Counted from the first letter of the stretch, positions 21,205 through 55,426 are shown. The stretch: 64,000 bases of DNA from Candidatus Woesebacteria bacterium RBG_16_42_24 (GCA_001792115.1 MGFX01000001.1:5847-69846), one strand, 5' to 3'. Notes: generated from the letters alone by a model not told the origin. Numbers and translations: made by a program.

Positions 21205-21665
21205 TTTAAGTTCGTAATCCGTAATCTGTCATTCGTCACCCGGATACAAGCTCAGATTACGAATCGTCATCTTTTTTTCTTTTCTCTGTTGAACGTATCA
21301 ACCCACTTATTAACTGAAATCCTTGATTTATTTTGTCTATTAAAGATTGAAATTCATCACCTGTAAGGAAATTTAGGTCTTTAGCTAATATAAGAAAATT
21401 TTGTACCTCTGCGTTTGAGCCACGAGCCTGATAATAAAAACGTATCTTATCAGCGAAATGATATCTCCCCCAGCCTTCCGCTATGTTGGCAGTCACAGAA
21501 GATGCCGCCCTTCGAAGCTGGTCAATAAGACCAAATCTTTCACTATTAGGGAATTTCCTCGTAAGTCTATAAATGGCGACAGCCACATCGTGGTTAACTC
21601 TCCAAGCATCAAGATCAGAAAAATGCATGTTTTTCTTCGGATTACGATTTACGGATGACGGATTA
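21205..21665. mobile_element. Small cassette carrying four-helix-bundle gene copy 3, bounded by related ~26-bp terminal sequences. Candidate non-autonomous IVS-like mobile element.
   Basis: Left end TTCGTAATCCGTAATCTGTCATTCGTCACC (21209-21240) plus internal inverted copy GATTACGAATCGTCATC. Right end GGATTACGATTTACGGATGACGG (21640-21662). A deletion derivative of both ends lies at 19621-19700. Confidence 0.5.
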
Positions 21666-21670
21666 TTCAT
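21257..21670 (-). CDS. Four-helix-bundle protein (23S rRNA IVS protein family), copy 3
   Basis: ..WRVNHDVAVAIYRLTRKFPNSERFGLIDQLRRAASSVTANIAEGWGRYHFADKIRFYYQARGSNAEVQNFLILAKDL.. matches the TIGR02436-type family. Confidence 0.75.
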   Translation of the reverse strand: MNNPSSVNRNPKKNMHFSDLDAWRVNHDVAVAIYRLTRKFPNSERFGLIDQLRRAASSVTANIAEGWGRYHFADKIRFYYQARGSNAEVQNFLILAKDLNFLTGDEFQSLIDKINQGFQLISGLIRSTEKRKKDDDS

Positions 21671-25051: not shown

Positions 25052-28000
25052 CTAGACAGGATAATTGTATTTGTTCTTTGTTTCATTGTCAACTACCCCC
25101 TCTTTGGTTGAAAGGACAAACCCCAAACCGGCAAAAAGCAAGGCAAATCCGAGAAATTCAAGTAATTGTGGCCAGAAAATGATATAAATTTTTGAGTTTT
25201 GAGTTTTGAGTTTTGAGTTTTCCACGAGCCATCCATTTGCCCAGGAATTAATTTTATAGTGCGGCAATATTTGGAAATTGGCTAATGCTATCCATCCATC
25301 TTCGTAAGCCTGGGAAAGTTCGATGTATCCGGATCCTTCCGTCTCTACAGAATAAAAGAATGTATTGACTTTAGTTATATTTTTAATCCGTAAATTTTGG
25401 GGGTTAGAAGTTGCGCCTCGGACAAGTACAATTCGACTCATCCAATTAACCGGAATTGGCAAAAACCCTATCTCTTCCAAGAAATTTACACTTTTTTCTG
25501 GGCCAAAGGAACGTGTTTCGGGAACAAAAGTGTATTCCCCTTTAGGATTTGTGCCCGGAAGGAGGGCATAGTATTCATCAAACGAACCTGTTGGCACTAA
25601 ATCTTCAAGATCATTATGGTGTGTGGCATGATTATTCAAGACAAACTTCAGTGACCTTCCTCGCCTATTTTCACCTTTAATCCTTAAAAGGTAACCCTGG
25701 TTTTGCACCAGTCCCGAATATACAAAATGGTCGCAATTAATCCCTCTGTCTTCTGATTCATAAGTTATCCCTGAAGAATCAACTTTCTTCTTGACCTCTC
25801 CAGTCCCAAAAATACTACAGTTTTCTGCCTCTTCCCCTCCACGATTTTGACTCCAGACTTCTTTCTTTATAAGTCCTTGTTCTTTCCCAAGAGGAAGTTC
25901 CAAAGATATCCTTTTAGCGTCTTTAATTTCTATCTTCCCTTCTTTAGGAGCAAAACTATCTTCTAGACGAACACCGGTCTGAGTAACCGAGGGATAAGTT
26001 TTAACGACAACATTTTTATATGAAATTGAAGATTCGTCTCCCTCTTCGTCTTTTGCTCTTGAGAGCAAATCGAGCCAGTAAACCCCACCAGATTGGGTCT
26101 CATAGAAGGTAGTAACTTCCGCCCAATCGTGACTAGATCCAGTTTGGTAAAATGGGGAGACGCCAATACAACCGGGGCTGCCCTCTTTAGTCAAACAGGT
26201 ATCTGGAGGGGTATCGGTAGTCGATTCGTGTTCTAATGTGACGCTTAAGAGGGTTGGGCCTGTAAATTCCATGGGTAAGCGTGCTCCAATACAGGCAGTT
26301 GCGTCTCTCGATGTTAGATTAATTTCACCATCGATTAAGGTTGCCTTAGTTCGGGTTTCTCTCCCCTCCCTTTCCCAGCACTTCCTAACTTCTTCTCCAT
26401 CAAAATTGGGGTATAAATCAAAATAAATATCGTCAGGCACTGAGTAAATTTTTAAAGATATTTCTGTGCTTTGGGGAAGGAGGATAGCTCCGACATATTG
26501 CTCGGAGGCTCCTTTTGATATTTCAAAATAATTATTGTCTCCAAATGAAAGTAGAATTTTCTCGGTACTTCCCGACATCGGTATGGTAAAGTCTCCTTCT
26601 GAAGTTTCTGAGATAACCTTTCCGTCGAGTTTAATAATAGGGTATAACCCCACTATCCTGAACTTAACACTTCCTCCTCCTTGGTAGGAAGCGTATAAAT
26701 CAACCGGTGCCAACCCCTCAAGGGGCACCCATGGCCCCAGATCTATATAAGCCGTACCTTCTTTGATATCTCTCTCCCAAATAAGTCTCCCGTCCTCCAT
26801 TCGAACATCAGTTGGTCTCGCGGACAAGACAGATGCAAAGGGGTGGTAAATACCGGTTCCGTTTATGTAATCTATACCAAAATAATAATTTGGGTCTTTT
26901 CTTAAATAAGAAAAGTCGTCTGACGTCGGGCTACCCACTAGTTTGGGCCCCCGAATATATTCGTCGTTCCTTCCAACGAAAATATGGTTCTCATAGAGGC
27001 TTAGACTATCAAATGTTTGAATCTCGTTTATTCTGTCTGAAGAGTTAATTAGGCTTTTTACTTCATCATAATAAAGAGCTTCAGACCATCCCCCTGGTTG
27101 GAATATATTTTCATCCATTAATATCCACCTAATCCTGTATTTACTTAGGACATTCTCGAAATCAGCTAGATCTTTCCTGTATATCGCATCGGCAATTTCC
27201 TGGTAATAACCCTCATTTTGACTACTCCAGGGGTCAAATGACCTATGAAGTAGCGGGGAAGAAATCCCCTGCCAAATAAATCCGCTGCCACGATAACCCC
27301 ACCTTGAGTATTCCCAGTTCCAAAAAGTAGGTTGAGGAAGGATGGCCACTCTGCCCTTATTCTCGGGTTTATCGAAAAAGTTAAACGCCTCAAAATATTC
27401 CTGTGGAATTTCTAGTTTTAATTTGTCATAGAGAAATTCTCCTCTAAAAGCAGGTAAACTCTCCAAGATAAGTCCGGCCAAAAACATGATTGCCAAGATG
27501 GGCGAGAGCGATTTTAGGATCCTGAAAGAGAAAATTCTCACCAGAGCGTAAGCCGATAGAACCGCAAAACTTAAGGCGTAAACTGTCGCGAATTTTGTGA
27601 AAGCAAATCTAAAAACTTCCTCGTAATAAGGGGAGTAATTCCAAATGAGTGACCGAACTGTCGAGATCAAAGGAATTCTAGCGCCTAAATTTAAAATACT
27701 GAAGGCAAAAATTGCGATGAATGGATAAACCGTTTTTTCTTTAGTCAATACTGCAAGAGTCAATCCGGCAATTGCCAATCCAAAAAGTACTAATCCAAAA
27801 AGCTCTATGGGGGGCTTTTGCCAGTAGTTTCTCCAAGTCTCCATTTGATATCCAAATTCGTTGTCTCCTTTCCAGTCTTCATAATCTAGACTAAAGCCGC
27901 GCATTAGTGCCACATTTTTGAGGTCTCCGAATGCCTCATTTCTGAGTACAATTTCCGGGTTCGAAAGTTCGTTAATCTTCGCGGAGGTTATTGTACTTGC

Positions 28001-28756
28001 GTTTTTATAGGCCGAATAAATATAAGGCAGACCCCAGAATGCATTGGTTGCAAAGAGAACAATAATAACTAAAACTGCGGCTTTTATGTTGTTTTTGTGA
28101 TTCTTAATTAAATGGAAAGCTAAAACTATAGCCACGAAAAACGCATAGACTATAAAGATTGTCGGAACGTGGGCTTGGGAAACTGCCAGTAAATTAACTG
28201 CAAATAAAAGCAAAAGATCCTTTTTCTTTCCCGACTCAAGATATTTAAGAAGCGTGAGAATAAGCCACGGCAAGAATCCAAAGTGGATGATAAAAAGCTC
28301 AAGGGGTGCATAAAACATCTGTATGGTGGCTGGATTGAAAAGATAAAAGACAGATGCAATCGAGGCTACCAAGGTTTTTAGCGGCTCGACTTCCTTTTTA
28401 AAAAGAAACCTGACTAGGTAGTAGATTCCCAATCCACCAAGCCCGTGCATCAAAAAGACAAAGAAATATCGAACAATACTTGCTTCTAGAAACTGGGAAA
28501 GAAACCAAATATAGCCTGTGTGAACTAAATTGGCGGCGTGGGCCATTCCGTCAAGTACCCCCAATCCTCTATATTCCTGCCAAACTGCTCCCAAATTTCT
28601 CGAAAAGTGCTCAGAAATATTTAATTCCGGCTGGGTGGAATCCCAACCAGTAAGCCAAGTTCCAGATACGTAATTGGACTTAAAAAGGAGAGTCTCAATA
28701 AGTAAAACCGCTAGGATAGGAAGCAAAAATTGAAATAATTTGAGGTATTTCTTCAT
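25052..28756 (-). CDS. Large (1234 aa) polytopic membrane protein with a big extracytoplasmic C-terminal region. Possible GT-C-type (YfhO/AftD-like) glycosyltransferase; the function call is weak.
   Basis: About 14 N-terminal TM helices followed by ~750 aa soluble and a C-terminal TM. Contains an in-frame (TTTGAGT)n repeat near the 3' end. Confidence 0.55.
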   Translation of the reverse strand: MKKYLKLFQFLLPILAVLLIETLLFKSNYVSGTWLTGWDSTQPELNISEHFSRNLGAVWQEYRGLGVLDGMAHAANLVHTGYIWFLSQFLEASIVRYFFVFLMHGLGGLGIYYLVRFLFKKEVEPLKTLVASIASVFYLFNPATIQMFYAPLELFIIHFGFLPWLILTLLKYLESGKKKDLLLLFAVNLLAVSQAHVPTIFIVYAFFVAIVLAFHLIKNHKNNIKAAVLVIIVLFATNAFWGLPYIYSAYKNASTITSAKINELSNPEIVLRNEAFGDLKNVALMRGFSLDYEDWKGDNEFGYQMETWRNYWQKPPIELFGLVLFGLAIAGLTLAVLTKEKTVYPFIAIFAFSILNLGARIPLISTVRSLIWNYSPYYEEVFRFAFTKFATVYALSFAVLSAYALVRIFSFRILKSLSPILAIMFLAGLILESLPAFRGEFLYDKLKLEIPQEYFEAFNFFDKPENKGRVAILPQPTFWNWEYSRWGYRGSGFIWQGISSPLLHRSFDPWSSQNEGYYQEIADAIYRKDLADFENVLSKYRIRWILMDENIFQPGGWSEALYYDEVKSLINSSDRINEIQTFDSLSLYENHIFVGRNDEYIRGPKLVGSPTSDDFSYLRKDPNYYFGIDYINGTGIYHPFASVLSARPTDVRMEDGRLIWERDIKEGTAYIDLGPWVPLEGLAPVDLYASYQGGGSVKFRIVGLYPIIKLDGKVISETSEGDFTIPMSGSTEKILLSFGDNNYFEISKGASEQYVGAILLPQSTEISLKIYSVPDDIYFDLYPNFDGEEVRKCWEREGRETRTKATLIDGEINLTSRDATACIGARLPMEFTGPTLLSVTLEHESTTDTPPDTCLTKEGSPGCIGVSPFYQTGSSHDWAEVTTFYETQSGGVYWLDLLSRAKDEEGDESSISYKNVVVKTYPSVTQTGVRLEDSFAPKEGKIEIKDAKRISLELPLGKEQGLIKKEVWSQNRGGEEAENCSIFGTGEVKKKVDSSGITYESEDRGINCDHFVYSGLVQNQGYLLRIKGENRRGRSLKFVLNNHATHHNDLEDLVPTGSFDEYYALLPGTNPKGEYTFVPETRSFGPEKSVNFLEEIGFLPIPVNWMSRIVLVRGATSNPQNLRIKNITKVNTFFYSVETEGSGYIELSQAYEDGWIALANFQILPHYKINSWANGWLVENSKLKTQNSKIYIIFWPQLLEFLGFALLFAGLGFVLSTKEGVVDNETKNKYNYPV
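25188..25221. repeat. (TTTTGAG)n tandem array lying in-frame inside CDS 25052..28756 (encodes ENSKLKTQNSKI)
   Basis: ttttgagttttgagttttgagttttgagtttt. Translation on the minus strand stays in the gene's reading frame. Confidence 0.6.
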
Positions 28757-34552: not shown

Positions 34553-37135
34553 CTATTTAAGAAGCTTCTTTATTGCCTCGTTGACATATTTTATTTCTCT
34601 TTGAGTAATCGGTCTTATCAGCCCCAACCTTCTTGCCTCTTTCACCCTTTTATCTTGTGCAACAACCTCCCTAATCTCGCCTAATAATCCGACCTCCCCC
34701 AGTGCCAGGCTGCCTTTGGGTAAGGGTTTATCAAAAAACGATGAGGCAATAGCAAGACAAATGGCCAAATCACTTGCAGGCTCCACTACTTTGATACCTC
34801 CGGCAACGTTTACGAAAACGTCGTATTCGTATAAAGGTAACCCGCACCTTCTGATAAGAACGGCCAACAGAAGCTCAAGCCTCCTTGAATCAACGCCCTG
34901 GGCTACCCTTTTAGGAAAAGGCATTTTGGAAGAAACAACCAGAGCCTGAATCTCTACCAAAAGCGGCCTTGTGCCTTGAAGAGTGGAGGTAACCACGCTT
35001 CCAGCTACATCCATATGCTCCCTGGAAATAAAAATCTTTTCTACGTTTGTTTCCGGAATTAATCCTTTATCCTCCATCTCGAAAATTCCCACCTCATCGG
35101 TTGGACCAAAGCGATTCTTGACTGCACGAAGCAGCCTCAAGGTCAGAGACTTGTCTCCCTCAAACCACAAGAGAGTATCGACTATGTGGGCAAGAACCGC
35201 TGGACCGGCGACTGTGCCTTCCTTGGTAACGTGTCCCACCAAAAATAATGGAATATTTTTTTCTTTTGCGATCCTTAAAAGCCTAAAGGCGCACTCGCGA
35301 ACCTGCCCAACGCTCCCCGCCAACCCGTTTAAATCCTCTGTAGTCATTGTTTGAATCGAATCCACTACCACACCTTTAAGGGTTGTTCCTTTAAAGGTAG
35401 ATGTTGTTTCGACCACGGAATCTACATCTGTCTCCTCCAAAAGACTTATCGAATTTTTCTTTATTCCGAGCCTTTCGGCTCTTACTTTTATCTGACTCCC
35501 CGATTCCTCTCCGCACACATATAAAACGTCGCCGAGTTTATCTGCGAGCTGAAGAAGGAGGGTAGAGTTGTGACTAACGATTCCGTTGGTAACCAGTGAA
35601 TGTGTTTTCGGTATACACAGATCAAAACAGACTGAATTACCCATATCTGCTACACTCTCCACTTTATCCCAATAAAATTGGGGCTCGAGTAATACTCTAA
35701 GCTCGGGAACATATCTTGCTATTTCTTTCAATTTTTTATAACTCGCAGACCGCATTCCCCTTAAATAGCGTCTATCCCAACGATGATCACTAGGAATTCT
35801 TGACAGATCTATAAAAGGCAAATGCGGAATTACATCTAAATTGCTGTTAGATAATTTAGAAAGTAATCTCATACTATTCTGTTTTCGGCTTAATCTAAAA
35901 CCAATCTCAGAGTAGAATAGCCTCGCACTGTCGCCGAGAAGTTGAAGAATCCATGCTCCTTGCTTTTTGTTTTTGCGAAAACGCAATTTCCCCACAATAC
36001 CAAATTGAAGCAAAACAAGATGGACCTGCTTTGCTAGTTGTTTTGAGGTGGTGCAATACTCAATTACACCTGGCATACTGCCACCACTTTTAGAATTAGA
36101 AGATCCGTCTGTATCAAATAAACCTTGTAAAAAGGCTCTCACAATCTGTTTTGGAGCAGAAAGAATTAATTCTGGAATACTCTTCAATTGCGCACGAACG
36201 GAAATAAAACCGATATGCCTAAGCCAAAGGTGGAAAAGACGATTATTAACTGACAACCTATATCTAAGAATGCCAGTCTTTAAACCTAAACTAGATATCC
36301 AATTTTCAAAATTTTCCTTAATTTCCGAATCTGCAGTAGTAAGGTTTACGTGTCCAAAATCAGTCAAACCTCCATCTCCAACCAACAAACCTAGACAGTA
36401 AGCCATATTCTTATCTATCTTTTTAGGAAAAATTGGCACGACTGCGTTGGTATTGATCCTAAATTTGAATGGGGGCAAGGAAGTGTTGTTGCCCCAAATA
36501 GCATCATGCCTTTGGATAGCAACATAGTCACCAACTCTTATTTGTTCCATGTTCTTCCAACTCTTTTTACCTTCCTGCGAAAGTGTCAGAATGGGATGTG
36601 TATATGTCGCCTGGAGTTCATACCCCATCCGAGTAGTAATTCGTTTCGTAATTTGTTCGTCGCTGGTATAAAAATGGCTCGTTTCTTGCAATCCATTAAG
36701 GGATTGAACGGCTATTCGTAATTCAACAAATCCTTTATTAGCATTTTTAGGTTTTAATTTCTCAATCGAAACGAGACCTCGCTCAGTTGGAATTAACGTA
36801 TCGGCAGCTACACATTTGCCAATACCTGGCTCTCCTGCAATAAGAACAACCTGACCAGGCACAAGCCCGCCACCCAAAACCCTATCCAGTTCTGAAATTT
36901 TAGTAGAGATCCTCGCAGTTGATTTTGAAGGGATGGAAGAAAGTGAAACAGGGTTTTTCTTTATACCTGTGCTACTTTTACTACCTTTTCTACCTCTACT
37001 ACTCTCTGTCGAGACTATTGTTTCAACTAAACTCCCCCAGCTTCCACAATTGGGGCATTTCCCAGCCCAGCCGACTTGAGAATAGCCGCACTGTTGGCAG
37101 ATGTACTTAGAATGAGGCTTGGCCATTTCGGCCAA
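34553..37135 (-). CDS. radA: DNA repair protein RadA/Sms, interrupted in the P-loop by a 416-aa intein
   Basis: Zn-finger CQQCGYSQVGWAGKCPNCGSWGS. Walker A split GEPGIGK|C...HN|STLLLQ. The C-terminal Lon-like domain is intact. Confidence 0.85.
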   Translation of the reverse strand: MAEMAKPHSKYICQQCGYSQVGWAGKCPNCGSWGSLVETIVSTESSRGRKGSKSSTGIKKNPVSLSSIPSKSTARISTKISELDRVLGGGLVPGQVVLIAGEPGIGKCVAADTLIPTERGLVSIEKLKPKNANKGFVELRIAVQSLNGLQETSHFYTSDEQITKRITTRMGYELQATYTHPILTLSQEGKKSWKNMEQIRVGDYVAIQRHDAIWGNNTSLPPFKFRINTNAVVPIFPKKIDKNMAYCLGLLVGDGGLTDFGHVNLTTADSEIKENFENWISSLGLKTGILRYRLSVNNRLFHLWLRHIGFISVRAQLKSIPELILSAPKQIVRAFLQGLFDTDGSSNSKSGGSMPGVIEYCTTSKQLAKQVHLVLLQFGIVGKLRFRKNKKQGAWILQLLGDSARLFYSEIGFRLSRKQNSMRLLSKLSNSNLDVIPHLPFIDLSRIPSDHRWDRRYLRGMRSASYKKLKEIARYVPELRVLLEPQFYWDKVESVADMGNSVCFDLCIPKTHSLVTNGIVSHNSTLLLQLADKLGDVLYVCGEESGSQIKVRAERLGIKKNSISLLEETDVDSVVETTSTFKGTTLKGVVVDSIQTMTTEDLNGLAGSVGQVRECAFRLLRIAKEKNIPLFLVGHVTKEGTVAGPAVLAHIVDTLLWFEGDKSLTLRLLRAVKNRFGPTDEVGIFEMEDKGLIPETNVEKIFISREHMDVAGSVVTSTLQGTRPLLVEIQALVVSSKMPFPKRVAQGVDSRRLELLLAVLIRRCGLPLYEYDVFVNVAGGIKVVEPASDLAICLAIASSFFDKPLPKGSLALGEVGLLGEIREVVAQDKRVKEARRLGLIRPITQREIKYVNEAIKKLLK
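35567..36814 (-). mobile_element. Intein (416 aa) in radA with a LAGLIDADG homing-endonuclease domain
   Basis: Intein N-terminus Cys (CVAADTLI) directly after GIGK. C-terminal ...VSHN followed by the +1 Ser of the extein. LAGLIDADG motifs AYCLGLLVGDGGL and FLQGLFDTDGS. Boundaries computed from codon counts and checked against the DNA (tgt at 36812-36814; aac at 35567-35569). Confidence 0.8.
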
Positions 37136-39979: not shown

Positions 39980-40830
39980 CATAATTGTTACTAATGGCTA
40001 GCCAATTTACATTCTTGCTAGCTCCCACGATCACCCGTGGGGTCCGACCATATCTTTCCGCCCGCAACTGCGTAGCTGTTGGCGGATCTGGCGTATGGCC
40101 TGTGAGGATTCTAGTTTTGATAGTCTTGGAGTATTTTTTCTTTTAATACCCTTCTTTTTTGAGTATTCATAGAATAAGCAATCTCCAAAACCTCCGTTAT
40201 ACCTTCTTTGGTTAAATGCGCTTTATCAGCAACTAACTCAATTACTCTTTTGAATTTTTCAAAAGTTTGTTGCTTAATATGCAATTTACCCTCAAAGAAA
40301 GGAATAATTTTATCTCTTAAACTAGGCAAATCTCGAACAACATATGCCAAAGATTTGTCAGTTCTATCTATCCGACTATTTTGTTTTACATAACCACAAG
40401 AAAATCTTTTTTGAAAGTACTCCAAAACCCCTCTTCCCGAAGGATTTTGAGAGACCTTAAAAAAATAGATTACTTGCCAACCGGTCTTAGTTTCAGGTGA
40501 ACGAACAATACCTATATAAAACATACCTTCACCTTCCACAAAACCGACCAAATAGTCATCTGATATATGAGATTGAAAACTAGCCTTTCCTGCTGATGAT
40601 CTCAGGTTTGACATTTTTACTAGTATATTACATATGTACTAGTAGTCAAACATTAACGAGACTTTCCAGCATATAGCCAGATTTATATCCCTTCATTTTA
40701 CTCCCCACGCTTCGCGCGGGGACCCCGGGCTATCACTCCGAGGTGTTTATGGACAAAAAGTTTTAATTCCACACTCAATGTATATTCAATACGTCTAAAG
40801 GGCGAGACCGCTTGGACTTGTCACTTTGAT
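39980..40830 (-). mobile_element. Group I intron in 23S rRNA, inserted after GAGACAGTT (near E. coli position 2593, the I-CreI-type site), encoding a LAGLIDADG endonuclease
   Basis: Exon sequence stops at ...gtctcacgacg/cagttgac (40858) and resumes at ccaccggatagagtccga (39962-39981; RC TCGGACTCTATCCGGTGG = E. coli CGGTCCCTATCTGCCGTGG). About 850 nt of non-rRNA sequence lies between. The boundaries are approximate to within 20 nt. Confidence 0.65.
40111..40614 (-). CDS. LAGLIDADG homing endonuclease (single-motif, I-CreI-like size) encoded within the 23S group I intron
   Basis: 167 aa with motif DDYLVGFVEGEGMFYIGIV (the LAGLIDADG equivalent). Confidence 0.75.
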   Translation of the reverse strand: MSNLRSSAGKASFQSHISDDYLVGFVEGEGMFYIGIVRSPETKTGWQVIYFFKVSQNPSGRGVLEYFQKRFSCGYVKQNSRIDRTDKSLAYVVRDLPSLRDKIIPFFEGKLHIKQQTFEKFKRVIELVADKAHLTKEGITEVLEIAYSMNTQKRRVLKEKILQDYQN

Positions 40831-43854: not shown

Positions 43855-43929
43855 TGGACCGTGCCGGGATTGAACCGGCGACCTCTACATTGCAAATGTA
43901 GCGCTCTAATCCAGCTGAGCTAACGGCCC
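43855..43929 (-). tRNA. tRNA-Ala (anticodon TGC) in the 16S-23S spacer
   Basis: GGGCCGTTAGCTCAGCTGGATTAGAGCGCTACATTTGCAATGTAGAGGTCGCCGGTTCAATCCCGGCACGGTCCA. G3:U70, anticodon loop TTTGCAA, 7-bp acceptor. Confidence 0.85.
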
Positions 43930-44008
43930 ATTTAGGCCAGCAAATTATGGCGGACAAACCGGCCTGGCTGTCGCCAGCGACCAGAGTCTAAAACTTCGGG
44001 CCCCTAAA

Positions 44009-44218
44009 TTACTTCTTGGCTTTCCTTAAGGCTTCGATCTCAGCCTTAATGGTCTCGACGTGATCCTCCCGAACTTTAAGATCCGAATACGATAGTTCAC
44101 CTTGAGCAGATTCGTGGGCAACTCCTCGAAATTTTGAAAGGCGTTCCCGATATTTTTCTTCGGCGCGAGCCAGCTTCTGTTCAAGTTCTTTAAGCTTTAA
44201 AGTAGTTTTGGCATCCAT
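44009..44218 (-). CDS. Small coiled-coil protein (69 aa), hypothetical, located between tRNA-Ile and tRNA-Ala
   Basis: MDAKTTLKLKELEQKLARAEEKYRERLSKFRGVAHE...EIEALRKAKK, a heptad-like charged helix. Co-oriented with the rRNA genes. Confidence 0.4.
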   Translation of the reverse strand: MDAKTTLKLKELEQKLARAEEKYRERLSKFRGVAHESAQGELSYSDLKVREDHVETIKAEIEALRKAKK

Positions 44219-44344
44219 TTTTATGTGCTAATTTTACCCTCCTTATCTTCGCACTCGGCTTCTGGGAACTATTCGTTCACGCCTCATGCCAAGATTGGTC
44301 GGAGGGTTGTTGACTATTTGTATTTAAAAAGGTCAACAAAAAAC

Positions 44345-44375
44345 CGGCTTTGAAGCCGGCTTAATACCTGAAAGC
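44345..44375 (-). terminator. Rho-independent terminator-like hairpin downstream of tRNA-Ile (minus strand: AAGCCGGCTTCAAAGCCGG + TTTTTT)
   Basis: Plus strand aaaaaaccggctttgaagccggctt. On the minus strand the GC stem is followed by a T6 run. Confidence 0.5.
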
Positions 44376-44533
44376 TAATTTACCTTTTTATCCCGTCGAT
44401 AGACCACTAAATTCCCCGCCTGTTGGTTTTAAGTTTAGGTAATAGCTTCTCATTAAGGCTTCAAAAGTATGCAAAGTATATAGAAGGTAGTTTATATAGT
44501 CAAGGGGTCGAATTGTTTTGAGAGCAAATTTGT

Positions 44534-44739
44534 GGGCGCTCCAGGAGTCGAACCTGGCACCTCTTTCTTATAACGAAATTTAGCGTACTCTTGTGGGCTG
44601 CCTAGGAGTCGAACCTAGCACCTCTTTCTTATCAGGAAAGCGTTCTACCGCTGAACCAGCAGCCCTCGTATGCTAAATTTCGATATGTCAATTTCCTGAT
44701 TGTCATCAGGAAAGCGTTCTACCGCTGAACCAATCGCCC
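44534..44739 (-). tRNA. tRNA-Ile(GAT)-like gene whose anticodon loop is interrupted by a 132-nt insertion that itself contains a complete tRNA-Ile(GAT). The 5' half is 44705..44739, the 3' half 44534..44572.
   Basis: 5' half GGGCGATTGGTTCAGCGGTAGAACGCTTTCCTGAT. 3' half AAGAAAGAGGTGCCAGGTTCGACTCCTGGAGCGCCCA. Joined, they give a canonical tRNA-Ile(GAT) with one A6:G67 mismatch. The insertion is flanked by the inverted repeat CGAAATTTAGC...GCTAATTTCG, and the 5' junction forms TTTCCTGAT-GACA-ATCAGGAAA. Confidence 0.4.
44594..44665 (-). tRNA. tRNA-Ile (anticodon GAT), intact copy nested inside the interrupted copy
   Basis: GGGCTGCTGGTTCAGCGGTAGAACGCTTTCCTGATAAGAAAGAGGTGCTAGGTTCGACTCCTAGGCAGCCCA. 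Perfect 7-bp acceptor, anticodon loop CTGATAA. Confidence 0.85.
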
Positions 44740-44985
44740 GCAATGTGAATAATTTATCATAAAAATAGCTTCAAAACAAATAGCCTATAATTTCTTGCTT
44801 TCTCTTCTTTCCCGTTGTAAAATACCCCTAATCAAAATCCACAAAAGCGTGGATTTTAGATACATTTCCGCGAAGCTTACTACTTCGCGTTTGCACGTTA
44901 ACTTGCGGAGGGCGTAATCGTCCGAAATCCTGCAACAATCGCTCCTCGAGCCGTGTACGAGTAGTACCCGAGGGCGAGAGGTAAG

Positions 44986-45369
44986 ATGTGTAGGACGGGA
45001 GTCAACTGGGAAAGCCGAGTGCTAAGTTTCGGAGGACGGAATCAACCGGAACCCATATCATTCAGGGCAAAGCCCAAAGGAGGACTCGTGTCTATATCGG
45101 CAGGAATCTCTGACAAACTCGAGCTCGTCGATGTAGAAATGAAATTGGAGAAGCTACTACCCAAAGGTCTGGGGGTAAGAACCATTAGCGATGAAGATCC
45201 GTCGGGTCATAGGTACCACTATCGCGTCGAGATCTACAAACCCGTTCTGTTCGGACTGTTCGGAAGAACCATCGCGAAAGTCTACACAAATGTCCAAGGA
45301 GGCGCCACAGTCGTGTTCGAAGATCCGGTCGAGAAGATCCAAAGCGCTGTCGCGTCACTTCGTCCATAA
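44986..45369 (+). CDS. Hypothetical protein (127 aa) in a moderately GC-richer segment of the rRNA spacer; start uncertain
   Basis: ORF preceded by GAGAGGTAAG-ATG. Local GC is about 52-55% versus ~42% around it. Confidence 0.35.
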   Translation: MCRTGVNWESRVLSFGGRNQPEPISFRAKPKGGLVSISAGISDKLELVDVEMKLEKLLPKGLGVRTISDEDPSGHRYHYRVEIYKPVLFGLFGRTIAKVYTNVQGGATVVFEDPVEKIQSAVASLRP

Positions 45370-45414
45370 TCTCGCTAATCTCGCAGGGCTTTAAGCCCGA
45401 GGAGGAAGACAAAC

Positions 45415-45633
45415 ATGATTGAATGGACATGGCGCCTTGTTGACGGAGAGATAATAATCTACGTCAACTATGGAGACCGCTCAGTGGCCAAGTTCGTTGA
45501 GGCCTTTGAGGAGCCTCGCAACCTCAGGTTAGTCGAGGCCTCTCGAGTGGATAAAACTTGGGGAGAGCTGCAACGTCTTTCACCCATGTACCACCAAGTG
45601 CTTTCCATGGTCCTGCCTCAACCACCACGGTGA
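45415..45633 (+). CDS. Hypothetical small protein (72 aa)
   Basis: Strong RBS GAGGAGGAAGACAAAC-ATG. Co-oriented with 44986..45369. Confidence 0.45.
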   Translation: MIEWTWRLVDGEIIIYVNYGDRSVAKFVEAFEEPRNLRLVEASRVDKTWGELQRLSPMYHQVLSMVLPQPPR

Positions 45634-45860
45634 CCTTCCGCAAGTACAATTCAAAACCCCTCTGTCCCCATTGGGAGACTACAATCTCAATATACAGAGG
45701 GGCGCACTACCTCAATTCAAATTCCTAATTTCTGACCTTCTTTTTTGTTGAGTCCCGCCGTGCGAAGAATTTATTTTTTTAATCCCCTTTAAAATTTGAT
45801 TTCGTGGATTTAAATGGGTCCCGCCATGCGAAGACTCCATGAGTTAGTGAGCGAATACCC

Positions 45861-46060
45861 CTTCAGAAGTCCGAATTGTTCGACAAGGACCCTGGTGTCC
45901 GCCGGAGTTGAAGAGACAAAGCATGAGCGACTTGCCTGCGCAAGCAGGGCTAACGAATGGGTGATGAGCACATGCGGGCGTCCTTCTTTCGTCAATTTCT
46001 TAGACGAGCAAGAAATTGACAAGAATCTTTGGACAAGCAAAGAGTGAACAATCTTTATAT
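45861..46060. repeat. Second copy of the ~200-230-nt element related to 39141-39375. The track ORF 45814..46047 overlaps it.
   Basis: See the 39141 feature. Also a local direct repeat GTCCCGCC[GA]TGCGAAGA at 45752 and 45819. Confidence 0.4.
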
Positions 46061-46071
46061 AATAAGTTTGT

Positions 46072-48207
46072 ATGCATCACCTGACCACACTTCTACTTAA
46101 ACTTCCTCGTAACACCGAAGTTACACCCGAAGCCGCCCAAACTTTTTTGGCGGCCCTCACCCAAATAAACTCCGTGGGTTTTTTGCAAAGACTTTTTGGG
46201 GCCCGTTCCCAAGCTCTTTCCCTGGAAATTGTCCAAATAAACCAGCAAATCCAATTTTTGGTTACTTGCGATACAGCTCTTGTTTCTTTCGTCAAAACCC
46301 AAATTCAATCAAATTATCCATTGGCAATAATTGACGAAATTCCCGATCCACTTGCTACCAACCCAAAACTACATGTTTCCACCCTTAAGTTATCAAAAGG
46401 AAGCTTTTATCCTTTAGCAACCTTTGCCAACTTTACAGACGTTGATCCGCTGGCTTCGGTTCTCTCCGTTCTTGCAAAATCCACCCCCGATGAGCTGGTA
46501 GCCGTCCAATATGCACTCGAATCGGTTAGTCCCTCCTGGCAAACCCAAGGGGCAAACTACGCCGCTTACGGGGCTAAGAAAGAGGACGGCACTTATTCCC
46601 CACGTGAGGACCAAAGTATCATAAAAGAGAAAATTTCTTACCCAGGCTTTGCTGTTTCTCTCCGACTTGCAGCTACTTCGAATGAAACCCTAAGGGAGCT
46701 TGCTTCCGCCTTCGGGGTTTTTACAAGAGCCGACGGGAATTCTTTCTCGACCAAAGGTCGCTCTTTCCTGAGGAAAACTAAACCCTTAATAGATTTTTTG
46801 TCGCGAAAAGTTTCCGGTAATCAAATCATGAACATATTAGAACTTGCCACCGTCTGGCATTTGCCTTCCGAAAAAATAAAAACACCTATGATTGCCTGGG
46901 GTACAAGTGTCCTTTCAGACCCTCCCGAAAACCTTCCTACTTCCTACGGTGCAACGGATGAGGATAAAATGGGCATTAACTTCTTTGGTAAAACACAGTT
47001 CAAAAATAACGAGGTGATCTTCGGAATTAAGGATAAAGACCGCCGCCGCCATCTCTGGAATATTGGAAAAACCGGAACCGGAAAATCGACCCTAATTGCC
47101 AATATGGCAATCGACGATCTTAAAAAAGGACGGGGTCTGGCTGTCATTGACCCCCACGGAGACCTTTGTGAAATAATCCTCGACTATATTCCTCGCGAGC
47201 GGATTAACGACGTCGTCTACTTTAACCCGGCAGATAAGGATTATCCAATTGTAGTAAATCCACTTGAGGTAACCAATAAAGAAGAGGCCGAACTCGTGGT
47301 CTCCGGAATAGTATCGATATTCAATAAAATCTTTGGATTTTCCTGGGGACCCCGACTCGAATATATCTTAAGGACTACCCTTTTAACCCTAGCCGATGTG
47401 CCCAACTCCACCCTAAAAGATGTACCTATGATATTAACAGTTCCCGATTTTAGACGAAGGATAACAGACAAAATCACCGACCCGATCCTTAAGTCTTTCT
47501 GGGTTGACGAGTTTGAGAAAATGCCGCCCAATCTTCAGAAAGAGGCTATCTCCCCTATTCTTAACAAGGTTGGCCAGTTTGTTACCTCACCCCTAATTCG
47601 AACAATCATCGGCCACCCCAAAAGCTCTATCCGTCTAGATGACATCATGAATGAAGGCAAAATCCTACTTGCCAATCTTTCCCAGGGTCGACTGGGAGAG
47701 GATAACGCGGCACTTTTAGGAGCCATGCTTATTACCAAACTTCAGCTTGCCGCGATGCACAGGGTCGATATGCCGGAAGAATCCCGCCGTGACTTTTACC
47801 TCTACGTCGACGAGTTTCAAAACTTTGCAACCGGATCTTTTATTAAAATCATGTCAGAAGCAAGGAAGTACCGACTAGATATAATGCTCGCCAACCAATA
47901 TATGGCCCAGATCCCGGAAGAGGTACAAAAGGCAATACTGGGAAATGCAGGATCTATTATGTCTTTTGCGGTGGGAGCAAGCGATGCTTCAATTCTTTTT
48001 AAGGAATTTGCGGAGGTTTTTTCCGAAACAGACTTGGTGAATCTTTCCAACTACCAGGTAGCCTGTAAATTGACCGTCGACGGCTATTCAACCAGACCCT
48101 TCCTGGCCTATACCCTACCCCTTCCTATCTCCCGAAATCAAAATCGGGACAAGGTCATTCGCGTCTCCCGCGAACGCTGGACAAAAAGAGGTCCCCACAC
48201 TGTTTGA
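46072..48207 (+). CDS. Cytoplasmic P-loop NTPase of the TraD/TraG/VirD4-coupling-protein or HerA (DUF87) type
   Basis: Walker A GKTGTGKST, VIDPHGDL, Walker B FYLYVDEFQNF, LANQYMAQIP. No N-terminal TM segment. Lies antisense within the 16S-23S spacer. Confidence 0.75.
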   Translation: MHHLTTLLLKLPRNTEVTPEAAQTFLAALTQINSVGFLQRLFGARSQALSLEIVQINQQIQFLVTCDTALVSFVKTQIQSNYPLAIIDEIPDPLATNPKLHVSTLKLSKGSFYPLATFANFTDVDPLASVLSVLAKSTPDELVAVQYALESVSPSWQTQGANYAAYGAKKEDGTYSPREDQSIIKEKISYPGFAVSLRLAATSNETLRELASAFGVFTRADGNSFSTKGRSFLRKTKPLIDFLSRKVSGNQIMNILELATVWHLPSEKIKTPMIAWGTSVLSDPPENLPTSYGATDEDKMGINFFGKTQFKNNEVIFGIKDKDRRRHLWNIGKTGTGKSTLIANMAIDDLKKGRGLAVIDPHGDLCEIILDYIPRERINDVVYFNPADKDYPIVVNPLEVTNKEEAELVVSGIVSIFNKIFGFSWGPRLEYILRTTLLTLADVPNSTLKDVPMILTVPDFRRRITDKITDPILKSFWVDEFEKMPPNLQKEAISPILNKVGQFVTSPLIRTIIGHPKSSIRLDDIMNEGKILLANLSQGRLGEDNAALLGAMLITKLQLAAMHRVDMPEESRRDFYLYVDEFQNFATGSFIKIMSEARKYRLDIMLANQYMAQIPEEVQKAILGNAGSIMSFAVGASDASILFKEFAEVFSETDLVNLSNYQVACKLTVDGYSTRPFLAYTLPLPISRNQNRDKVIRVSRERWTKRGPHTV

Positions 48208-53784: not shown

Positions 53785-53903
53785 AATTTCTCAAATTCTA
53801 GCACTAAACACCCTAAAATGGTAAAATATCAACCGCCTGGCCCCGTCGTCTACAATGCACAAAGCAGTGCTATACGACGGACTTTACTTGATGCCTGACA
53901 TAT

Positions 53904-53975
53904 GGCCCCGTCGTCTAACGGCTAGGACACGGCCCTTTCAAGGCTGGAAAACGAGTTCGAATCTCGTCGGGGTCA
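53904..53975 (+). tRNA. tRNA-Glu (anticodon TTC)
   Basis: GGCCCCGTCGTCTAACGGCTAGGACACGGCCCTTTCAAGGCTGGAAAACGAGTTCGAATCTCGTCGGGGTCA. The 5' 14 nt (GGCCCCGTCGTCTA) are duplicated at 53841-53854. Confidence 0.8.
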
Positions 53976-54024
53976 CTCAAAAATCTCTGCGGAGATTTTT
54001 GAGTGCAAGCACCTAAGTCTAAAT

Positions 54025-54316: not shown

Positions 54317-54388
54317 GGGCCCATAGCTCAATGGCAGAGCAAGTGCCTTTTAAGCACGTGGTTGGGGGTTCGAATCCCTCTGGGCTCA
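54317..54388 (+). tRNA. tRNA-Lys (anticodon TTT)
   Basis: GGGCCCATAGCTCAATGGCAGAGCAAGTGCCTTTTAAGCACGTGGTTGGGGGTTCGAATCCCTCTGGGCTCA. Its 3' 18 nt are duplicated at 54499-54518. Confidence 0.8.
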
Positions 54389-54577
54389 CTAAAAAATTCC
54401 TTGCCGAATTTTTCAGTGCAAGCACTTTAGTTTGGGCATAATATAGATTGGGGGGTGAGAAGTTTACCCTGAAAACGAAGTTTTTAGGGAATCCCTCTGG
54501 GCTCACTTAAAAACAGTAATTTTTAAGTGCAAGCATACTATCTAACAGATTAGACAGTTCGAGAGCTCACACTTCAT

Positions 54578-54688: not shown

Positions 54689-55426
54689 ATGTACACCAGA
54701 GAGGAAATTTTAAGTGAAACACGAAGGCTTGGAAAAGAGAAGGGCGGTAAGGCACCAAGCGAAAAAGAGCTTGACCTAAATGCTGGGATTAAAAATTATT
54801 ACTGGCATAAATATTGGACGAAAATCTCAGATCTTCAAAAAGAAGCTGGTTTCTCTCCCAACACATTCTTGAAAACTCCATATAGACATGATGATTTGTG
54901 TAAAAAATTTACTTCACTCATAAGAGAAATAGATAAGTGGCCAACTAAGGCTGAAATAGAAGTGAAACATAATAAAAAAATGGATTTTCCAGGGTCAACC
55001 ATTTTCTATAAGAATCTAGGCAATATAAAGGATCTGGCAAAAAATATCTTAGAATATGCAAAAAGACGAAATTATGATGATGTGATTGAAATATGTGAAG
55101 GTGTGATTGAACAATATAAAGACAGTGATCGTCAAAAAGTAAATGGGGCAGAGGAAAAAACTCATGGATGGGTGTACCTTATTAAACATGGACGTTTCAA
55201 TCAGTACAGAATAGGCCAAACTACCAATATATTGCGACGTTGGAAAGAAAATAAAATTGAGTTACCTGAGGAACCGAAACATATTCATACAATAGAAACA
55301 GTCGATCCCGAAGGTGTTGAAAAATACTGGCTCAACCGTTTCGCTACCAAAAAAATGAATGGTGACTGGTTTAAGCTAACTCCTGCTGATGTAAAAGAAT
55401 TTAGAGCGTGGAGAAAAATTGTATAG
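54689..55426 (+). CDS. Protein with a C-terminal T5orf172/GIY-YIG-like domain; very AT-rich gene
   Basis: C-terminal GWVYLIKHGRFNQYRIGQTTNILRR (GxVYxxK...YRIGQT pattern of T5orf172/MUG113). GC content about 33%. Confidence 0.55.
   Translation: MYTREEILSETRRLGKEKGGKAPSEKELDLNAGIKNYYWHKYWTKISDLQKEAGFSPNTFLKTPYRHDDLCKKFTSLIREIDKWPTKAEIEVKHNKKMDFPGSTIFYKNLGNIKDLAKNILEYAKRRNYDDVIEICEGVIEQYKDSDRQKVNGAEEKTHGWVYLIKHGRFNQYRIGQTTNILRRWKENKIELPEEPKHIHTIETVDPEGVEKYWLNRFATKKMNGDWFKLTPADVKEFRAWRKIV

Follow-up and report, generated by a model that had tools for sequence, protein, structure and literature searches.

How can an essential transfer RNA (tRNA) gene be interrupted in its anticodon loop by DNA that carries a second, complete copy of the same tRNA? 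This question is raised by a locus at 44739-44533 (minus strand) in a stretch of 64,000 nucleotides (nt) from Candidatus Woesebacteria bacterium RBG_16_42_24 (GCA_001792115.1, MGFX01000001.1:5847-69846), hereafter the window, which belongs to a Patescibacteria (candidate phyla radiation) genome of the Microgenomates group. We read the locus as an older tRNA-Ile(GAU) gene that was split between nt 36 and 37 by a structured cassette of 135 nt, which encodes no protein and carries its own complete tRNA-Ile(GAU), leaving the outer halves as relics. We give this reading a probability of roughly 0.7.

The nested arrangement had been noticed in a first-pass annotation of the sequence, as a tRNA-Ile(GAT) split in its anticodon loop around an intact tRNA-Ile(GAT) at 44665-44594, and was borne out by direct reading, ARAGORN, Rfam and a repeat search. 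ARAGORN located the inner tRNA-Ile(GAT) at 44593-44665, while the Rfam tRNA match covered 44594-44665 with 63.9 bits against a gathering score of 29; every stem pairs on direct reading, and across the locus both programs called the inner gene alone. The repeat search returned four features, namely two half-tRNA direct repeats (D2, 45 nt at 84%; D1, 49 nt at 86%), one inverted repeat enclosing the inner tRNA, and the perfect 9-bp hairpin already described at the 5' junction. Each half of the inner tRNA aligned locally with its own flank (scores of 56 and 60, compared to 16-18 for wrong-side controls), and the 216-nt region folded at -77.3 kcal/mol (z = -4.3 versus shuffles). Some boundaries required revision. 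The 5' half at 44739-44705 stood, but the 3' half occupies 44569-44533 rather than 44572-44534, the insert measures 135 rather than 132 nt, and the inverted repeat, first given as 11 bp, has 19-nt arms that are 89% complementary (44570-44588 / 44668-44686). No open reading frame (ORF) was found in the insert. The parts are:

44751-44761, minus strand: putative resident promoter, an extended -10 box (TATGATAAATT) lying 11 nt upstream from the 5' half of the outer tRNA
44739-44705, minus strand: outer tRNA-Ile 5' half (nt 1-36), read as relic; GGGCGATTGGTTCAGCGGTAGAACGCTTTCCTGAT; direct repeat D2
44713-44705 / 44700-44692, minus strand: perfect 9-bp hairpin TTTCCTGAT-GACA-ATCAGGAAA, from the repeat search and present in the minimum-free-energy fold
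44704-44570, minus strand: insert, 135 nt, made up of 39-nt X, 72-nt tRNA and 24-nt Y; 63 nt are non-tRNA DNA
44704-44666, minus strand: left flank X, read from the sequence
44704-44702, minus strand: GAC of X
44701-44690, minus strand: P1 segment of X, AATCAGGAAATT
44689-44683, minus strand: conserved GACATAT of X
44682-44672, minus strand: P2 5' arm in X, CGAAATTTAGC
44671-44666, minus strand: spacer ATACGA of X
44665-44594, minus strand: inner tRNA-Ile(GAU), 72 nt, intact (ARAGORN and Rfam)
44593-44570, minus strand: right flank Y, inverted-repeat partner of X
44593-44585, minus strand: spacer of Y, CAAGAGTAC
44584-44574, minus strand: P2 3' arm in Y, GCTAAATTTCG
44573-44570, minus strand: tail TTAT of Y, whose last three bases TAT pair with ATA of GACATAT
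44569-44533, minus strand: outer tRNA-Ile 3' half (nt 37-73), read as relic; AAGAAAGAGGTGCCAGGTTCGACTCCTGGAGCGCCCA; direct repeat D1

The outer 5' half starts with GGGCGAT and its insert-proximal end reads ..CTTTCCTGAT; the insert begins GACAATCAGGAAATTG.. and ends ..GCTAAATTTCGTTAT, termini that meet end-to-end in a predicted circle junction; and the outer 3' half begins AAGAAAGAGGTGCCAGG. Because AT stands before both junctions, the junction position can slide by 2 nt. The 9-bp hairpin joins the last 9 nt of the relic to the P1 segment and is confined to the window lineage. A perfect 9-nt inverted repeat (TTGTTTTGA / TCAAAACAA) also brackets the whole nest at 44513-44521 / 44771-44779; this may be chance, with about 0.15 such pairs expected.

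Two explanations proposed in the first-pass annotation were addressed by comparing assemblies and alleles. In principle, short tRNA-half repeats could mislead assemblers into a collapsed or chimeric repeat. However, 11 loci share an identical stretch of 531 nt round the nest; they were drawn from ENA MEGAHIT contigs, Rifle scaffolds, JGI metagenomes and an NCBI genome and represent several samples, and homologous nests of different sequence occur in dozens of other assemblies and in other species. Since identical sequence recurs across independent assemblies, we exclude an artefact for practical purposes. The locus is also found in GCA_001793175.1 (contig MGHK01000033.1) and in many Rifle-aquifer assemblies. 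The second explanation, recombination between tandem tRNA-Ile copies, belongs with other local rearrangements that need no mobile element, namely replication slippage between such copies or a template-switch duplication. Among homologous loci, referred to here by L numbers, the outer and inner copies of L099 are identical in sequence, and L097 and L076 have the look of tandem duplications that take in the downstream flank; in the window, the left junction carries a perfect 9-bp palindrome reminiscent of template switching, and partial duplicates flank tRNA-Glu and tRNA-Lys as well. We nevertheless regard local rearrangement as very improbable. The joined outer halves of the window are indeed called tRNA-Ile by ARAGORN, but are not fully canonical as had been claimed, because they contain an A6.G67 mismatch in the acceptor stem. 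The inner and outer copies differ only at the paired stem positions 5-68, 6-67, 7-66 and 50-64, with three of the four differences compensatory, so they are distinct alleles that each evolved as a tRNA and not the product of a fresh duplication. X and Y bear no relation to the sequences on either side of the outer gene, the two repeat periods differ (5'-5', 74 nt; 3'-3', 61 nt), and the same X/Y architecture occurs at the same nucleotide position with many different outer and inner alleles across species.

The extent of this recurrence was established by a scan of species genomes, in which a 19-mer common to both 5' halves was found at 119 loci, almost all in Microgenomates (Gottesman-, Woese-, Ames-, Roizman- and Levybacteria). 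In the seven complete nests that were dissected (window, L086, L132, L030, L099, L032, L042), inserts ranged from 129 to 161 nt and X and Y were complementary in 7/7. A census by our own score thresholds of 116 intact tRNA-Ile genes counted a 5' relic upstream of 17, a 3' relic downstream of 34 and both at 13, compared to 4/113 and 9/115 in wrong-side controls. When metagenomes were scanned for interrupted 5' halves, 33 had tRNA context; 32 of these enclosed an intact tRNA-Ile within 175 nt and one was cut by the contig end. An insert in a tRNA-Ile gene lacking an intact inner tRNA-Ile was therefore seen in 0 of 32 metagenome contigs, and in none of the genome cases.

These counts bear on the possibility of a true intron, in which the outer tRNA would be functional and the insert would be removed by a new small ribozyme, by an endonuclease and a ligase, or by RNase P-type cuts followed by ligation, so that one transcript would yield two tRNA-Ile. 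That the insert never occurs without an intact inner tRNA argues against it, as does the state of the outer copies. Judging integrity by ARAGORN calls alone, with outer halves naively joined, we obtained a tRNA-Ile call for 11/27 outer copies (two of them doubtful) and for 27/27 inner copies. The defects in outer copies were of several kinds: A35-U36 are lost in the L099 family and nt 22-31 in L065 and L067, D arms are decayed in L042 and L032, 3' halves are missing in L145 and L191, and extra D- or T-loop insertions are present in L073, L138, L152, L154, L164, L214, L065 and L026. By this measure, the comparison shows that outer copies decay and inner copies do not. Element copies without a tRNA occur only inside relics (L173, 314-353; L059).

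Several loci preserve more than one layer. In L173/L207 there are three matched layers, in the order O1-5' - X1 - O2-5' - X2 - tRNA - Y2 - O2-3' - Y1 - O1-3', with the relics mirrored. Two interrupted 5' halves are stacked upstream of an intact tRNA in L154 and in L137/L208/L213/L215; the L154 contig ends before the expected place of the outermost 3' relic, and none was found in L137. Read from the order of the layers, these loci show that each new cassette entered the anticodon loop of whichever copy was then intact. Not all inner genes are of the Microgenomates type: L139, L140 and L162 enclose, within an outer copy of that type, a tRNA-Ile of 77 nt that encodes CCA and has a long D loop, which suggests cargo from a foreign or distant lineage.

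The outer copy of the window has a mixed ancestry of its own. The closest relative, L034 (23S rRNA ~96-97% identical), has an uninterrupted tRNA-Ile that equals the window's outer copy except at C6, in a tRNA unit that is inverted. The window's outer 5' half is identical to the GGGCGAT-type tRNA-Ile 5' halves in L038, L075, L163 and L015 and differs from that of L214 by one D-loop change (GTTCAGTGG against GTTCAGCGG), while its 3' half is identical to those of the uninterrupted tRNA-Ile of L034 and the outer copy in L137. Because the 5' half is of GGGCGAT type and the 3' half of GGGCGCT type, the outer copy may be a composite produced by cassette turnover, which, together with the A6.G67 mismatch, is a further point against a spliced outer tRNA. 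L214 retains the window's promoter and outer 5' relic with a different cassette, and has two 3' relics to one 5' relic, an arrangement that shows such turnover. The inner tRNA of the window is identical to the outer, interrupted tRNA of L086.

What the cassettes share is a structure rather than a sequence. Eleven distinct cassettes of the window type were collected (window, L086, L137, L152, L154, L163, L164, L214, L173, L040 and the empty copy in L173), all inserted between nt 36 and 37 and built to one plan, with ^ marking a junction: ..CCUGAU^GAC - P1 hairpin - GACAURU - P2 5' arm - 1-6 nt - tRNA - 4-9 nt - P2 3' arm - Y - UAU^AAGAAAG... The P1 stems are wholly different among members (AAAC/GUUU, CCCGC/GCGGG, CCAG/CUGG, GCAA/UUGC and others), as are the P2 arms. 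P1 is a self-contained hairpin in the other family members; in the window it is weak alone and pairs with the last 9 nt of the relic. For covariation we aligned nine rows in register from fixed anchors, omitting the empty copy in L173 and entering the extracts of L154 and L214, which are identical, as a single row. Of the cells, 94.8% were paired, both sides had changed in 11/15 pairs, and 0/500 shuffles reached the score, while sliding the partners reduced pairing to 29-53%. This shows that P1 and P2 are kept by compensatory substitutions. The earlier view of the inverted repeat as a meaningful structure thus stands; the bulge-helix-bulge (BHB) form suggested for it does not, as none could be drawn.

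The ends of the insert are fixed in the same structure. ATA and UAU pair directly at the 3' junction, and variants with GACAUGU carry CAU at the insert end. Pairing of the first base, G, to the C in GAC.AUA and of the last base, U, to the A beside it sets the two ends against each other, as at a nick within a helix. The left-end motif GAC-hairpin-GACATRT was searched in 1.44 Mb of fetched loci, where it follows TTCCTGAT in all but eight matches; the exceptions are one conserved stretch in L018, L040, L094 and L110, apparent coding sequence in L028 and L078, L188 (not inspected), and the empty copy in L173/L207. Other families keep the plan with different junction bases or positions: the L099 group has CCUG^CUC-hairpin-GCGAA.., a GC-rich group has CCUGA^CCGCGCCUGCC.. 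..GGCGGGCAGG^UAAG, and junctions lie near nt 26 in L032, L077 and L045 and near nt 21/32 in L065 and L067. Two simpler accounts of the flanks were tried and rejected. A promoter within X (TTGACA in the window and L086) is contradicted by the variable TT that precedes the motif across the family and by the lack of a following -10 box in the window. An origin of P2 from native leader-trailer pairing is not supported by uninterrupted tRNA-Ile genes, which have no excess flank complementarity; the strong outliers proved to be nests.

This anatomy also offers support for an intron. The site in the anticodon loop is precise, P1, P2 and the anticodon stem meet in a three-way junction that contains both insert junctions, and invariant junction bases combined with freely covarying helices are found in small catalytic RNAs. 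Insertion creates CUGAUGA at the junction, and a U precedes the first base, a G paired with C, a setting that we take to resemble the RNase P cleavage context. Some outer copies are, moreover, pristine. The first-pass annotation had accordingly considered an intron-like element at the canonical position; the precise site, the structure and the helix joining the ends agree with that description, but the position is 36/37 and not the canonical 37/38, and neither a BHB nor a group I core is present. The helices give no preference for RNA: X:Y stability was better on the sense strand at 6 loci and on the antisense strand at 12 (not significant), with 11 versus 21 G.U pairs. Helices no more stable on the sense strand mean that nothing argues specifically for an RNA structure.

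Known intron classes were compared in turn. Group I introns occur in tRNA anticodon loops of Patescibacteria, some of them at 36/37, and have been recognized by a 5' exon ending in U and an intron ending in G (Nakagawa et al. 2026, PMC13011429). The cassette shares with them the phylum, the anticodon-loop site including 36/37, and the 5' exon ending in U (PMC13011429), but it has only 135 nt, of which 72 are tRNA, and function would be restored by a replacement gene and not by splicing. A permissive Rfam scan (E up to 5, 43900-46100) gave only the inner tRNA and a chance Trp-leader match, with no intron or ribozyme; there is no P3-P9 core, and, as had already been pointed out, the insert falls short of the length of a group I intron, which as a rule has at least 200 nt. 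The exon does end in U36, but within the 2-nt ambiguity the insert ends in U, A or U, never in G. A BHB intron was rejected on inspection, without a dedicated BHB finder: the junction is at 36/37 and not 37/38, the 3' junction is just two exon bases away from the anticodon stem, and there is no 4-bp exon-intron helix. No splicing endonuclease EndA and no RtcB-type ligase was seen among the ORFs scanned in the 64-kb window, which exclude 15355-21195 and 25052-28756. A hammerhead (CUGANGA - stem II - GAAA - stem III - UH, cleavage after H17) agrees with CUGAUGA at the junction, but the next block is GAC-A instead of GAAA, an extra C stands before stem II and an extra base before stem I, and Rfam gave no hammerhead match. 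With the comparative data opposed to rescue of the outer gene by splicing, we consider a true intron unlikely.

A different class of explanation begins from the tRNA gene as a landing site. Williams in 2002 and Reiter in 1989 reportedly described tRNA genes as integration targets of islands and prophages. Such elements integrate into tRNA genes, regenerate the target and leave displaced fragments (Islander, PMC4383910; tRNA gene fragments, PMC9897764). Like them, the cassette has a tRNA target, often the anticodon loop, brings compensating tRNA sequence, leaves relic fragments and, through serial events, produces fragment arrays. Unlike them, it brings a whole tRNA, displaces both old halves so that they bracket the new gene, consists of ~60 nt of non-tRNA DNA without an integrase, and has ends set by covarying helices and not by a block of target identity. 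[quoted passage not shown] In favour of a remnant, tRNA-Ile is a classical attachment (att) site in this group, with element ends in L021 and L094 that abut a repeat of tRNA nt 9-73; loci with 3' relics only are known (L097, L076, L025, L118); AT at both junctions fits a 2-bp crossover; and 0.3-3.5 kb upstream there are a TraG/DUF8128 gene and small ORFs that vary between strains. However, integrase-type integration is expected to leave one complete and one displaced partial copy bounding an integrase element (PMC4383910, PMC9897764), whereas we observed both halves round a complete, foreign gene and no ORF. Inserts span a narrow length range (129-161 nt); their flanks, in many independent loci, are conserved, form structures and covary, which random deletion would not yield; and the metagenome scan found no long gene-bearing version between relic halves. 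A remnant is thus improbable.

The two element ends themselves were as follows. In L094 (4192-4790) a classical integrative-element end ..GTTATAAC abuts the repeat of tRNA nt 9-73, ~440 nt from the intact gene. The conserved end ..GTTATAAC also abuts such a repeat in L021 (1300-1425), where ARAGORN found no intact tRNA-Ile in 8 kb.

Two further systems offer partial parallels. The Caldiarchaeum tRNA-Thr locus combines a 5' fragment with a recombinase element of 1.8 kb and a full gene (Sugahara et al. 2012, PMC3293823). It resembles the nest in having a 5' tRNA fragment upstream of a full copy with a mobile element implicated, and complementarity flanks the break as in split tRNAs; unlike archaeal disrupted, split or permuted tRNAs, the nest is bacterial, has no BHB and a tiny element without genes, and its fragments are not reassembled into a working tRNA. 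T4 SegB is a free-standing homing endonuclease in a phage tRNA cluster (PMC2330249), and homing of this type shares with the cassette the selfish turnover of tRNA gene regions; the cassette has no linked endonuclease, and homing replaces alleles without nesting them.

Nuclease genes of the homing kind do occur near tRNA genes. In the window, a 245-amino-acid (aa) ORF (54689-55426, plus strand) directly after tRNA-Gln, in a tRNA-Glu/Lys/Gln cluster, contains a nuclease domain of the T5orf172/MUG113 type (GIY-YIG-like) and weakly matches a homing-endonuclease-associated repeat; from its sequence it may be a free-standing homing endonuclease beside a relic-bearing tRNA cluster. In L076, L082, L095, L098, L129/L194, L212 and L067, small GIY-YIG nuclease ORFs (~85-110 aa) terminate within the 5' end of tRNA-Ile or of the outermost relic, or shortly ahead of it, their stop codon overlapping GGGTCAGTAG.

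Returning to a replaced outer gene with a self-sufficient inner copy, we propose the following working. The inner tRNA would be the only working tRNA-Ile(GAU) at the locus and the outer halves non-functional relics. Transcription would start from the resident promoter upstream of the outer 5' half and yield a long precursor, from which the inner tRNA would be released by ordinary end processing, with RNase P acting at the 5' end and some 3' end-processing activity at the other. The candidate promoter is the extended -10 box at 44751-44761, which a generic sigma-70 scan did not call; the same T(G/A)TG(A/G)TAAATT box stands before the outermost tRNA-Ile copy in L214, L154, L191, L034 and L075. 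P2 and the window-specific hairpin, which sequesters the anticodon-arm strand of the relic, plausibly stop the inner tRNA from pairing wrongly with relic halves that are nearly identical to it. Invasion of a gene that is essential, and probably single-copy, would be possible only because the replacement is brought along, and the need for a replacement would explain why only tRNA-carrying copies are seen in live genes.

How the cassette spreads is the least certain part. It may travel as a folded single strand or small circle that recombines with the anticodon arm by means of a recombinase provided in trans. This would fit the way the ends abut, the AT before both junctions and the conserved unpaired positions, as well as L173, in which a regenerated YAT^AAGAAAG received a second insertion, and L042, which looks permuted. 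Alternatively, it could be moved after DNA uptake by homologous recombination acting through the tRNA core, which is universally conserved; this fits L214. We put forward, as a tentative idea less probable than not, that the cassette is the first of a new class of autonomous-looking, protein-less structured mobile element, a ~60-nt two-hairpin unit that homes to nt 36/37 of tRNA-Ile(GAU) as a folded strand or circle via a host enzyme and persists through the spare gene copy it supplies. The three-way junction with its invariant bases (CUGAU^GAC..GAC.AUA..UAU^AA) may instead be a new RNA-level excision or ligation device.

Small elements without a recombinase of their own are known. Integron attC cassettes and Xer-dependent elements such as the CTX phage use folded single-strand recombination sites and are small. 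The cassette is like them in having a conserved structure with free sequence and conserved unpaired positions (A.A, T.Y), a likeness that is one of resemblance only. As an attC site proper (R boxes RYYYAAC/GTTRRRY, IntI) it was rejected, since GTTRRRY is not conserved: GTT precedes the 3' junction in the window, L086, L137 and L164 but not in L163, L214 or L152. No integron integrase IntI was identified among the scanned window ORFs, nor was a dif-like site identified. Single-strand transposons of the IS200/IS605 type (e.g., ISDra2, target TTGAT) insert 3' of a fixed penta- or tetranucleotide, have conserved subterminal hairpins and use TnpA. The cassette always follows (C/T)TGAT, with a hairpin 3 nt inside the left end; the hairpin sequence varies, and no TnpA was found in the scanned window ORFs. 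A miniature inverted-repeat transposable element or small element derived from an insertion sequence has terminal inverted repeats and a target-site duplication and is present in many copies spread over diverse genomic sites. In the cassette, P2 is inverted-repeat-like and AT at both junctions could be a 2-bp duplication; the cassette arms, however, covary freely and copies were found only in tRNA-Ile anticodon loops.

Several observations weigh against a replacement cassette as we describe it. First, outer copies in L086, L137, L163 and L132 are pristine, as a functional split gene would also show. Second, the covariation alignment was built by the analyst, and the relic census depends on thresholds and heuristics that are likewise the analyst's. 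Third, mobility has left few traces: a pattern search of the 1.44 Mb of fetched loci found no element copy outside tRNA-Ile, no integrase or transposase was seen among the scanned window ORFs, and no mobility enzyme or intermediate was identified. Fourth, the search for a viral carrier gave 0 matches of the 19-mer tRNA core in IMG/VR, and the X-motif pattern produced 120 chance matches in viral contigs, none with tRNA-Ile. Lastly, the arrival of the tRNA in the P2 loop is not accounted for by the cassette model.

No description of nested bacterial tRNA genes was found in the literature searched (subscription journals lay outside its coverage), and the nested cassettes point to a way of replacing an essential gene that is apparently undescribed. 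If the replacement model is correct, a selfish or neutral insertion can live in an essential single-copy gene by complete replacement, not by splicing or target regeneration, and the tRNA debris round Microgenomates tRNA-Ile loci is explained. The nested layers would then record, in readable order, how replacements succeeded one another and how ultra-small bacteria exchanged tRNA alleles horizontally, and the invariant junction bases with covarying helices would define a compact structure that some enzyme, or the RNA itself, must recognise. Because standard tRNA finders see the inner gene only, gene counts, att-site calls and intron surveys in these genomes would need care.

The nest is part of a dispersed ribosomal RNA region with these features:

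49813-48347, minus strand: 16S rRNA
46072-48207, opposite strand to the nest: TraG/DUF8128-like gene
44986-46047, plus strand: three small strain-variable ORFs (127, 72 and 77 aa) without a Pfam match, between the nest and the TraG/DUF8128 gene
44503-44475, minus strand: strong promoter-like site TTGACT-17-TATACT, with a terminator ~110 nt downstream
44362-44341, minus strand: intrinsic terminator
Between the terminator and tRNA-Ala(UGC), in minus-strand order: 69-aa ORF
43929-43854, minus strand: tRNA-Ala(UGC)
43638-40785, minus strand: 23S rRNA
40111-40614, minus strand: LAGLIDADG ORF, between the 23S 3' end and 5S rRNA

Because the opposite-strand TraG/DUF8128 gene parts 16S from tRNA-Ile, tRNA-Ala and 23S, the rRNA operon is unlinked. 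Gene order round the nest is kept in L034, L214, L038, L040, L075, L137, L163 and L191. The small-ORF lengths vary among otherwise identical assemblies (93, 116, 127 or 140 aa; 73, 77 or 91 aa), and the three-ORF segment is absent from L034, where the tRNA-Ile unit is inverted. The LAGLIDADG ORF varies in size and position between assemblies (151 vs 167 aa). The promoter-terminator unit at 44503-44341 (minus strand) is without an Rfam match and could be a small RNA or leader; the unit and a motif (A/G)AUGAGAAG are kept downstream of tRNA-Ile in L086, L137, L191, L214 and L034. Elsewhere in the window, a RadA/KaiC-like ATPase (34553-37135, minus strand) has an intein containing a LAGLIDADG domain, and a '23S rRNA intervening sequence protein' gene (21257-21670, minus strand) lies near tRNA-Ala(CGC).

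Debris of other tRNA genes was also observed. An exact copy of the first 14 nt of tRNA-Glu(UUC) (53904-53976, plus strand) lies at 53839-53852, right after a TGGTAAAAT box. The 51-nt spacer before the gene ends in GACATAT, the heptamer shared with the Ile cassette, and its TATACGACGG is a near-complement of the relic end, so that a second relic-sequestering hairpin would exist in the same genome. The last 18 nt of tRNA-Lys(UUU) (54317-54389, plus strand), from the T loop, recur exactly at 54489-54506, 99 nt later; with similar downstream flanks on both copies, this looks like an att-type or tandem partial duplication. In L065 (1772-1960, minus orientation) a tRNA-Cys 3' relic comes after an intact tRNA-Cys(GCA), so relics are not formed from tRNA-Ile alone. 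Finally, in Gottesmanbacteria-type loci (L026, L055, L057, L065, L085, L101, L103, L132, L159, L216), relics of tRNA-Ile and tRNA-Cys have GC-rich palindromic mini-elements (CCTGCCCGC - 20-40 nt - GCAGGCGGG), sometimes in tandem, in their D and T loops; none were seen in intact tRNA genes.

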